From Escherichia coli (GTDB taxonomy: Bacteria > Pseudomonadota > Gammaproteobacteria > Enterobacterales > Enterobacteriaceae): a stretch of DNA of 64,000 nucleotides. The position numbers were made by a program, and so were the translations under genes. The notes beneath the pieces were generated by a model, which had not been told where the DNA came from, ran no database searches, and worked only from the letters and a program-made list of their open reading frames with translations. Shown here one piece after another: positions 61,842 to 61,997 of the stretch (its first letter is position 1; every line of letters begins with the position of its first letter). The stretch lies in the NCBI RefSeq assembly GCF_041248615.1, contig NZ_CP158426.1; one strand, 5' to 3'.

Positions 61842-61917
61842 TGGTGCTGGTTAACGGACTTGAACCGCTACCCATTCGCTTACAAGGCGACTGCTCTACC
61901 ATTGGAGCTAAACCAGC
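61842..61917 (-). tRNA. tRNA, probable tRNA-Thr (anticodon UGU)
   Basis: 76 nt cloverleaf derived by hand: acceptor GCTGGTT/AACCAGC, D-arm GCTC..GAGC, anticodon loop CTTGTAA, T-arm AGCGG-TTCAAGT-CCGTT, 3' ACCA; one mismatch at base of anticodon stem. Confidence 0.7.
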
Positions 61918-61922
61918 ATGTT

Positions 61923-61997
61923 TGGCGGGACAGCGTGGACTCGAACCACGATAAGAAGGTTAACAGCCTTCCGTAATGACCTTTATACGACTGACCC
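61923..61997 (-). tRNA. tRNA-like gene, probable tRNA-Asn (anticodon GUU), possibly degenerate
   Basis: 75 nt: T-arm CGTGG-TTCGAGT-CCACG, anticodon arm GAAGG-CTGTTAA-CCTTC, 3' GCCA; acceptor stem has a T-T mismatch at 4:69. Confidence 0.55.

Follow-up and report, generated by a model that had tools for sequence, protein, structure and literature searches.

A phage 21-type tRNA-Asn/tRNA-Thr cassette in the late leader of an Escherichia coli prophage, with likely roles in decoder supply and nuclease-resistant tRNA replacement

Why does a lambdoid prophage of Escherichia coli carry two tRNA genes between its late antiterminator gene and its lysis genes, and what would a tRNA-Asn and a tRNA-Thr do there? 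The locus lies near one end of the window, a 64,000-nucleotide stretch of contig NZ_CP158426.1 (assembly GCF_041248615.1). The pair itself is not new; what the window holds is the known tRNA-Asn/tRNA-Thr cassette of phage 21, in its native setting between Q21 and S21. We consider it likely that the cassette is intact and functional and that it serves in two ways, as a supply of decoders and as a nuclease-resistant replacement for host tRNAs.

Two tRNA genes in a phage 21-type late leader

ARAGORN, run on the whole 64 kb window, calls two tRNA genes and no others; both lie on the minus strand, and the Rfam model RF00005 (gathering score 29) aligns with each of them over model positions 1-71 of 71. 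The first-pass annotation had drawn two tandem minus-strand cloverleaves here by hand and had proposed tRNA prediction over the region as a check; ARAGORN accepts both genes, and ARAGORN and Rfam match the hand-drawn boundaries and anticodons to the base. In the order of their coordinates, the elements of the cassette are as follows.

61842-61917, minus strand: tRNA-Thr(UGU), 76 nt, CCA encoded (ARAGORN; RF00005, 61.5 bits, E = 6.5e-12)
61918-61922, minus strand: 5-nt spacer AACAU between tRNA-Asn and tRNA-Thr, with 1 variable position across relatives
61923-61997, minus strand: tRNA-Asn(GUU), 75 nt, CCA encoded (ARAGORN; RF00005, 55.3 bits, E = 3.2e-10)

In the direction of transcription tRNA-Asn (anticodon loop CUGUUAA) comes first and tRNA-Thr (CUUGUAA) second. 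The T-T mismatch previously pointed out at 4:69 in the Asn acceptor stem is real, as the cmscan alignment and the ARAGORN drawing of the identical phage L copy both place U4 opposite U69, and cmscan adds a second non-standard pair in the D stem, U13·U22 by position. tRNA-Thr has a mismatch of its own, G27·A43, which tops the anticodon stem and shortens it. The identity elements of E. coli AsnRS are G34, U35, U36 and G73, and those of ThrRS are G1-C72, C2-G71, G35 and U36. tRNA-Asn has all four of the former, including discriminator G73, and tRNA-Thr has all of the latter together with discriminator A73. With both sets complete, correct charging of both tRNAs is to be expected.

Gene annotation was taken from a sequence-identical record (E. 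coli NRZ14408, NZ_LT599825.1, 3555669-3619668), and the late promoter was transferred by alignment from the phage 21 record OL657228. The surrounding features are the following.

62089-62577, minus strand: Q21-type late antiterminator gene, product 162/162 identical to phage 21 Q (PF06530, Phage_antitermQ)
62047-62082, minus strand: late promoter pR' of phage 21 type
62077-62082, minus strand: pR' -35 element, TTGACA
62059-62074, minus strand: pR' Q-binding element, ATTGAGCAAATGAGCA
62054-62059, minus strand: pR' -10 element, with the transcription start at about 62047
61998-62045, minus strand: intrinsic terminator tR', with its hairpin at 62007-62045 and T-run at 62002-62008, annotated in phage 21 and Sf6
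61775-61834, minus strand: hairpin (61785-61834) with CUUCUUUUUU behind it, which closes the tRNA module as a terminator-like or processing element
61508-61723, minus strand: S21 pinholin/antiholin gene, which opens the protein-coding part of the late transcript, product 71/71 identical to phage 21 S21-71
61011-61508, minus strand: SAR endolysin gene, from open reading frames and the annotation of the identical record and phage 21
60571-61026 and 60624-60821, minus strand: spanin genes Rz/Rz1, from open reading frames and the same annotations

On the minus strand the order is NinG, a frameshifted NinI phosphatase gene, Q, pR', tR', tRNA-Asn, tRNA-Thr, S21, the SAR endolysin and Rz/Rz1, followed by a DUF6979 gene, the terminase and portal genes and the remaining virion genes. 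The phage 21-type late module is thus complete, with Q21, a pR' whose Q-binding element reads ATTGAGCA/AATGAGCA, tR' and the S21 pinholin. An earlier placement of the tRNAs in a Q-dependent late leader, between Q and the lysis genes, is borne out by this annotated layout, which matches that of phage 21.

The terminator tR' folds as RNA at -20.2 kcal/mol (z = -6.1), a value reached by 0/200 shuffles. A simple promoter and terminator scan picked up neither pR' nor tR', the latter on account of its long, interrupted stem. The cassette starts 51 nt into the pR' transcript, after a 50-nt leader, and the T-run of tR' ends 4 nt ahead of G1 of tRNA-Asn. These 4 nt leave pR' as the sole plausible promoter for the tRNAs, and since pR' lies upstream of tR', a full-length transcript needs read-through of the terminator. 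The mechanism of antitermination by phage 21 Q is established, and together with a cassette placed directly after tR' it suggests that the tRNAs would be made in quantity only upon read-through by Q21. On the other side of the pair, the 118-nt spacer from tRNA-Thr to S21 (61724-61841) is also structured (RNA fold z = -3.5), and the phage L record has a terminator annotated at the site equivalent to the hairpin after tRNA-Thr.

The prophage starts at the lambda attachment core GCTTTTTTATACTAA (34536-34550), which adjoins ybhB and bioA, and extends beyond the end of the window. It encodes a P22-type Abc2 anti-RecBCD protein (PF11043) just outside the window. The ninI and ren genes are frameshifted, so the prophage may be defective.

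Nuclease sites and codon usage

The Toprim nuclease OLD of the P2 prophage amputates the anticodon arm of host tRNA-ThrU and thereby aborts lambdoid infection (PMC12445682). It cuts paired CNG triplets, at positions 28-30 and 40-42, on the 3' side of the C (Govande et al., PMC12445682). Phage tRNA-Thr(UGU) genes rescue OLD-poisoned cells, and the tRNA-Thr21 of phage 21 guards against the combined toxicity of P2-OLD and Gam and stays uncut in vitro, a resistance credited to its shorter anticodon stem and to C28U/G42A (PMC12445682). The UGU anticodon is required, as changing it abolishes rescue by a related phage tRNA-Thr (PMC12445682). Similarly, the Thr(UGU) tRNA of HK446 gives near-wild-type plating of the OLD-sensitive phages HK97, HK542 and Bas34, and host tRNA-ThrU has zero effect on the plating of OLD-sensitive phages (bioRxiv 10.64898/2026.07.10.737580). 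All of these rescue experiments used plasmid-expressed tRNA (PMC12445682; bioRxiv 10.64898/2026.07.10.737580), and the Thr tRNA alone rescues neither lambda nor delta-recB cells suffering OLD toxicity.

The tRNA-Thr of the window is base-for-base the tRNA-Thr21 of phage 21 and the Thr(UGU) of HK446. It carries the resistance features G27·A43, UCG/CGA in place of CUG/CAG, and G39 in place of U39. By its identity to the tested sequences, the predicted role of this tRNA is that of an OLD-resistant stand-in for host tRNA-ThrU. The published resistance features further indicate that the mismatch that matters is the one in the anticodon stem of tRNA-Thr, not the one at 4:69 of tRNA-Asn. How often the protection is called upon here is a separate matter: Abc2 does not trigger P2-OLD, and neither the HK446 trigger gp33 nor the inhibitor Oad2 has a homologue in this prophage. 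With Abc2 present and gp33 absent, the prophage may rarely meet activated OLD.

A second Toprim system, PARIS, brings tRNA-Asn into the comparison. The targets of its nuclease AriB are tRNA-Lys(UUU), the prime one, tRNA-Thr(UGU) and host tRNA-Asn(GUU), which is secondary but biologically relevant. The AriB site reads U36-A-A-U39-C40|N41 (also given with A41), with U39 critical and distal contacts also needed. The Lys, Thr and Asn tRNAs of phage T5 jointly neutralise PARIS. Host tRNA-Asn has also served as a comparator substrate in the cleavage kinetics of P2-OLD (PMC12445682). The two regions concerned, positions 28-30/40-42 and positions 36-41, compare as follows.

Host asnT: 28-30/40-42 CGG/CCG; 36-41 UAAUCC
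Window tRNA-Asn: 28-30/40-42 AAG/CUU; 36-41 UAACCU
T5 tRNA-Asn: 28-30/40-42 CAU/UUG; 36-41 UAAGUU
Host thrU: 28-30/40-42 CUG/CAG; 36-41 UAAUCA
Window tRNA-Thr: 28-30/40-42 UCG/CGA; 36-41 UAAGCG
T5 tRNA-Thr: 28-30/40-42 UUG/CAU; 36-41 UAAGCA

Relative to the host, the tRNA-Asn of the window has lost both paired CNG triplets, U39 and the C28-G42 pair. U39 is missing from both window tRNAs, as it is from the Thr and Asn tRNAs of T5, and C39 occurs in 7/7 phage Asn homologues. It is possible, and we put it forward tentatively, that the whole cassette is a two-tRNA counter-defence module against OLD-family Toprim tRNases, in which tRNA-Asn would be a nuclease-resistant substitute in its own right and the 4:69 pair would be selected. 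The loss of CNG and U39 in tRNA-Asn and the persistence of this gene in the slot (see below) are in its favour; the Asn homologue of Klebsiella phages, which keeps CAG/CUG, and a cassette without tRNA-Lys(UUU) count against it. If true, nuclease resistance of tRNA-Asn would explain why the Asn and Thr genes move together, as a unit of 228 bp, among lambdoid, HK97-like and P22-like phages. The 2026 preprint credits HK446 with a single tRNA (bioRxiv 10.64898/2026.07.10.737580); ARAGORN finds both the Asn and the Thr gene there.

Some relatives carry tRNA-Gly(UCC) beside tRNA-Asn. This partner would be another substitute, since tRNA-Gly(UCC) is a preferred OLD target, but the anticodon stem of the lambdoid Gly(UCC) variant equals that of host glyT, and we found no support for it as a tRNA with an altered nuclease site.

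The decoding of ACA in E. coli rests on a single low-abundance tRNA, tRNA-ThrU. We counted codons in 31 late and 29 early prophage genes and in 32 flanking host genes, as annotated in the identical record. ACA makes up 13.4 per mil of codons in late genes, 13.6 in early genes and 3.6 in host genes, a 3.7-fold excess of late over host. Asn codons together rise from 36.0 per mil in host genes to 47.6 in late genes, and AAU from 14.7 to 24.3 (1.65-fold). In the putative major capsid gene (52748-53689), AAC accounts for 14/19 Asn codons and ACA for 1/21 Thr codons. The codons AGG, AGA and AUA are likewise enriched in late genes, AGG and AGA more so than ACA, which ranks third, and the cassette holds no decoder for them. 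The SfI paper reports an ACA bias of 17.3 versus 7.1 and no clear Asn bias, calling the purpose of the Asn gene 'not clear', and the phage L paper reports AAC for 24/25 of the capsid Asn codons; our codon results agree with both.

Could supply of ACA and AAU/AAC decoders be the whole function, with nuclease resistance incidental to sequence divergence? The enrichment of ACA and AAU in late genes, the same ACA bias in SfI, the AAC preference in the phage L capsid and an Abc2 that does not trigger OLD all fit such a role. Against it, AGG, AGA and AUA are more enriched yet unsupplied, and the SfI authors saw no Asn bias. As the more enriched codons go unsupplied and early genes, whose translation precedes the tRNAs, are equally ACA-rich, codon supply is incomplete as an explanation. 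Moreover, host tRNA-ThrU expressed from a plasmid fails to rescue OLD toxicity whereas the phage tRNA succeeds, which argues that the difference in sequence matters, not the dose, and both window tRNAs diverge from their host counterparts exactly at the OLD and AriB site positions. We therefore regard decoding as the sole function as unlikely. Codon supplementation of the late genes, as the first-pass annotation had it, stands in part: the 3.7-fold excess of ACA and the need of a related phage tRNA-Thr for its UGU anticodon support it, but a published role in nuclease resistance exists beside it.

Conservation, covariation and the contents of the slot

Is tRNA-Asn, with its non-standard pairs, a decaying gene, as had been suggested from 4:69? 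Among 54 copies 46 are identical, and none restores a Watson-Crick pair at 4:69 (0/54). The Asn sequence is 100% identical in the window, phage 21, Sf6, phage L and HK446. Both tRNAs and the terminator are 100% identical in the window, phage 21 and Sf6, though the promoter and Q-binding element of Sf6 differ, and even where the flanks of the cassette fall to about 90% identity or are unrelated, the tRNAs of those phages stay 99-100% identical.

More distant comparisons, with diverse tRNA homologues collected by blastn in distant mode, agree with this pattern. Temperate Klebsiella phages carry an Asn-Phe-Thr-Arg array in which the Asn homologue is 87-91% identical to that of the window; it shows compensatory changes at 6:67, 7:66 and 28:42 and keeps both U4·U69 and U13·U22. 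Further out, the Asn homologues of a virulent Klebsiella phage, of a jumbo phage of Erwinia and of a T4-like coliphage carry U4·G69 instead. Of seven Asn homologues, four have U·U and three U·G at 4:69, and none has a Watson-Crick pair there. In the alignment of these seven sequences, 93.2% of cells are paired and 9/21 pairs have changes on both sides; 0/500 shuffles score as well, and slid registers are far worse too. Compensation is seen in tRNA-Thr too, where the Klebsiella phages have changed both partners of 3:70 and 6:67. Conservation and covariation thus mark both tRNAs as functional RNAs under purifying selection, and the same comparisons identify the non-standard pair at 4:69 as a feature of the lineage, not damage.

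A relic is accordingly very improbable. The non-Watson-Crick pairs in the acceptor and D stems and the sporadic single-copy Asn variants with further mismatches in prophages are what one would cite for it. They are set against the identity of most copies across phages, the retention of U4·U69 in Klebsiella homologues amid compensatory changes in its flanks, the U4·G69 of distant ones, a full set of AsnRS identity elements with an encoded CCA, and the persistence of tRNA-Asn with varying partners described next. Conservation, covariation and the intact identity elements speak strongly against a pseudogene.

The Asn+Thr pair is found in 368/5426 complete E. coli genomes. It is annotated or present in phage 21, Sf6, SfI, BTP1, HK446 and dozens of P22-like Salmonella phages, and the papers on SfI, epsilon34 and phage L discuss it. 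For a survey of the slot we took 83 loci whose Q shares at least 97.5% identity with that of the prophage; three were truncated and set aside, leaving 80. Searching with the Q protein brought up Q21 loci of 97.5-100% identity and nothing more divergent. The contents of the slot in these untruncated loci were as follows.

Asn+Thr: 48/80
No tRNA: 19/80
CAU tRNA alone: 5/80
Asn+Gly(UCC): 4/80
Asn alone: 2/80
CAU+Arg(UCG)+Arg(UCU), the set of Stx phages: 2/80

These counts suggest that the late leader is a variable slot for tRNA cargo, in which Asn+Thr is the modal content behind Q21. The view that an Asn and a Thr identity would be atypical here does not hold up, as the pair is canonical for a phage 21-type leader, and the Ile/Arg tRNAs once expected in this place are the Stx-phage alternative, present behind Q21-type genes at the two last-listed loci, with the CAU tRNA by itself at five more. 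No member of the slot persists more than tRNA-Asn, which occurs with Gly(UCC), alone, and in phage L beside a degenerate Thr.

The cassette is dispensable for the Q21 module, as the 19 tRNA-free loci show. Its similarity to HK446 is confined to 61780-62007 of the window, and P22-like phages share the boundary at 61780. Judged by these shared boundaries, the cassette behaves as a self-contained unit of about 228 bp, with both ends in the T-runs that follow hairpins. It probably rides with the Q21-S21 module regardless of benefit to its present carrier.

The tRNAs might instead act mainly as processing punctuation, with RNase P parting the lysis mRNA from the Q-loading leader and so fixing the 5' end or stability of that mRNA, and with decoding secondary. 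Their position between the leader and the first cistron, with structured elements on either side, and a slot that accepts many different tRNAs would suit such a role. We nevertheless find it scarcely plausible, since the tRNA-free loci share this Q and leader, strict conservation extends to anticodons and identity elements, and the phenotype shown by experiment depends on the UGU anticodon. Least credible of all is compensation for a host tRNA gene broken by prophage integration, an idea raised for HK446 (bioRxiv 10.64898/2026.07.10.737580), which like Sf6 and SfI integrates in thrW: the prophage studied here sits at the lambda attachment site on the ybhB/bioA side with no tRNA gene broken, which refutes the idea for this locus, thrW encodes the CGU and not the UGU isoacceptor, phages integrating in thrW restore the gene from attP (phage L paper), and tRNA-Asn would be left unexplained.

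Related cassettes and a proposed role

The closest known system is phage 21 itself (OL657228, CPT_21_64 and CPT_21_65). Its tRNA, spacer, Q-binding element and tR' sequences are the same as those of the window, its Q and S21 are 100% identical, and the 451-nt leader region is 98.2% identical. The gene order is also shared (Q, pR', tR', Asn, Thr, S21, R21, Rz), and the -35, Q-binding element, -10, start site, pause element, terminator, Asn and Thr are annotated in the phage 21 record in the order seen in the window. The two phages differ elsewhere, as the prophage has another virion module (with a baseplate J/gp47-type tail), Abc2 for lambda Red/Gam, and att-lambda.

In Sf6, SfI, HK446, BTP1, ST64T/L and other P22- and HK97-like phages, tRNA-Asn, or the pair where Thr is present, is 98.7-100% identical, and the cassette occupies the same place, between the late promoter and the lysis genes. 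The settings vary: in HK446 a lambda-type Q and holin flank the identical pair, Sf6 has another Q-binding element, and phage L has a degenerate 'Leu(UAA)' where Thr sits. The ileZ-argN-argO cassette of Stx phages (933W type) uses the same slot, with Q upstream and late genes downstream, but differs in its identities (CAU, Arg UCG and Arg UCU). It is classically explained by the rare codons AUA, AGA and AGG.

The T5 and T4 tRNA arrays, which act against PARIS (AriB), retron-Eco7 (PtuAB) and P2-OLD, share a principle with the window cassette, in that the targeted isoacceptors are altered at the nuclease site. In the Thr and Asn tRNAs of T5 the loss of U39 goes with weakened anticodon stems, as in the tRNAs of the window. 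The arrays differ in scale and control, with 8 to 25 tRNAs and promoters of their own in lytic phages, against two tRNAs in the Q-dependent leader of a temperate phage. Host thrU and asnT/U/V/W, in turn, have the same anticodons, anticodon loops and synthetase identity elements as the window tRNAs, which match them at 55/76 (Thr) and 48/76 (Asn) positions. The paired CNG motifs and U39 of the host stems are missing from the phage stems, and host tRNA-Asn has U-A at 4:69 where the phage has U·U.

From the layout and these comparisons, we propose the following course of events. Q21 would let RNA polymerase pass tR', so that Asn and Thr are transcribed in quantity. The polycistronic precursor would presumably be cut by RNase P at each tRNA 5' end and trimmed to the encoded CCA, and the mature tRNAs would be charged by AsnRS and ThrRS. 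tRNA-Thr would read ACA and survive OLD through G27·A43, U28-A42 and the lack of a paired CNG. Late-gene translation would then be sustained in two ways, with the scarce ACA decoder topped up and cleaved host tRNAs replaced, and tRNA-Asn most likely would serve likewise for AAC/AAU. For BTP1, a search of the literature for expression data yielded nothing relevant.

Read as a source of both decoders and nuclease-resistant replacements, the cassette would illustrate how temperate phages with minimal tRNA sets may replace host tRNAs lost to the defences of rival prophages and satellites, such as P2 OLD and PARIS.

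Boundaries and content of the late-leader slot

The tandem tRNA-Asn and tRNA-Thr genes are followed on the minus strand by a terminator-like element:

61775-61834, minus strand: long hairpin, then CUUCUUUUUU, directly 3′ of tRNA-Thr

The match of the cassette to HK446 and P22-like phages ends at 61780, within the CUUCUUUUUU T-run past tRNA-Thr, and at its other end at 62007, within the T-run of tR', the late-leader terminator between Q and tRNA-Asn. Because the shared similarity breaks off inside T-runs at both ends, the tRNA cassette looks, from sequence comparison, like a 228-bp mosaic module between two terminator-like elements.

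We further note that the cargo of this slot, which lies ~90-500 nt downstream of Q, differs among loci with near-identical Q genes. The window's Asn and Thr pair is carried by 48 of the 80 untruncated loci whose Q is at least 97.5% identical to that of the window (L004-L083), with the remainder distributed as tabulated.

Content of the late-leader slot in loci L004-L083
Asn+Thr: 48
No tRNA: 19
Single CAU tRNA: 5
Asn+Gly(UCC): 4
CAU+Arg(UCG)+Arg(UCU): 2
Asn without a partner: 2

Gly(UCC) is listed among the preferred targets of P2-OLD, the P2 prophage nuclease that cuts host tRNA-ThrU (bioRxiv 10.64898/2026.07.10.737580), but the anticodon stem of the lambdoid Gly(UCC) copy is that of host glyT.

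Relatives of the tRNA pair in other phages

In phage HK446 (JQ086372; locus L095, 35097-35252) both members of the pair, tRNA-Asn and tRNA-Thr, are present with 100% identity to their window counterparts, and neither is annotated in GenBank record JQ086372. HK446 has been described as encoding one tRNA only (bioRxiv 10.64898/2026.07.10.737580). Homologues of the pair are found in Klebsiella prophage-like phages (L085, 1201-1520; L088, 701-1020), where they form part of an array of four tRNA genes, Asn(GUU)-Phe(GAA)-Thr(UGU)-Arg(UCU), that sits after a Q gene of a different kind; these Asn and Thr genes show compensatory stem changes.

The gene annotated as 'tRNA-Leu(UAA)' in Salmonella phage L (L084, 1281-1352) also derives from the cassette tRNA-Thr, with which it shares the acceptor, D and T arms, whereas its anticodon arm has been rebuilt and 4 nt have been deleted. 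ARAGORN makes no tRNA call for this gene. Rather than a Leu tRNA, it is probably a Thr gene that has degenerated or been re-purposed.

Other features of the prophage and the host part of the window

Further features of the window are as follows:

9242-9963, minus strand: RelE/ParE-PaaA2 toxin-antitoxin pair, flanked by dinG and rhlE
24976-25120, minus strand: Moco riboswitch (Rfam RF01055, 102.9 bits), preceding moaA
34536-34550: lambda att core GCTTTTTTATACTAA, prophage end
35228-36373, plus strand: acyltransferase-family gene
36411-37748, minus strand: hypothetical gene, 445 aa
38141-39166, plus strand: acyltransferase-family gene
60158-60532, minus strand: DUF6979 gene (Pfam PF22399, E = 9e-30), with Rz/Rz1 on one side and the small terminase on the other
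62568-63124, minus strand: gene for a NinI-type serine/threonine phosphatase, immediately upstream of Q, split into two ORFs and frameshifted according to RefSeq

The ren gene, past the window end, is frameshifted too. The toxin-antitoxin pair and the riboswitch, which belong to the host part, are both ordinary. The two acyltransferase-family genes and the 445-aa hypothetical gene, which lie between the att core and the tail-fibre genes (34536-39166), may be lysogenic-conversion cargo. The DUF6979 position is a small variable cargo site of the late operon; in the closely related E. coli SCU-301 it is instead taken by an unrelated gene of opposite orientation.

Prophage integrity and OLD triggers

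The prophage may be partly defective, though its tRNA and lysis module is intact. Lambda Gam is absent from it, and in its stead, outside the window, is a P22-type gene for the anti-RecBCD protein Abc2 (PF11043; 45452-45748 of L086, the same prophage). Homologues of the HK446 OLD trigger gp33 or of the OLD inhibitor Oad2 are likewise absent from this prophage. The presence of Abc2 and the absence of gp33 and Oad2 homologues bear on the question of whether P2-OLD would ever be triggered by this prophage.
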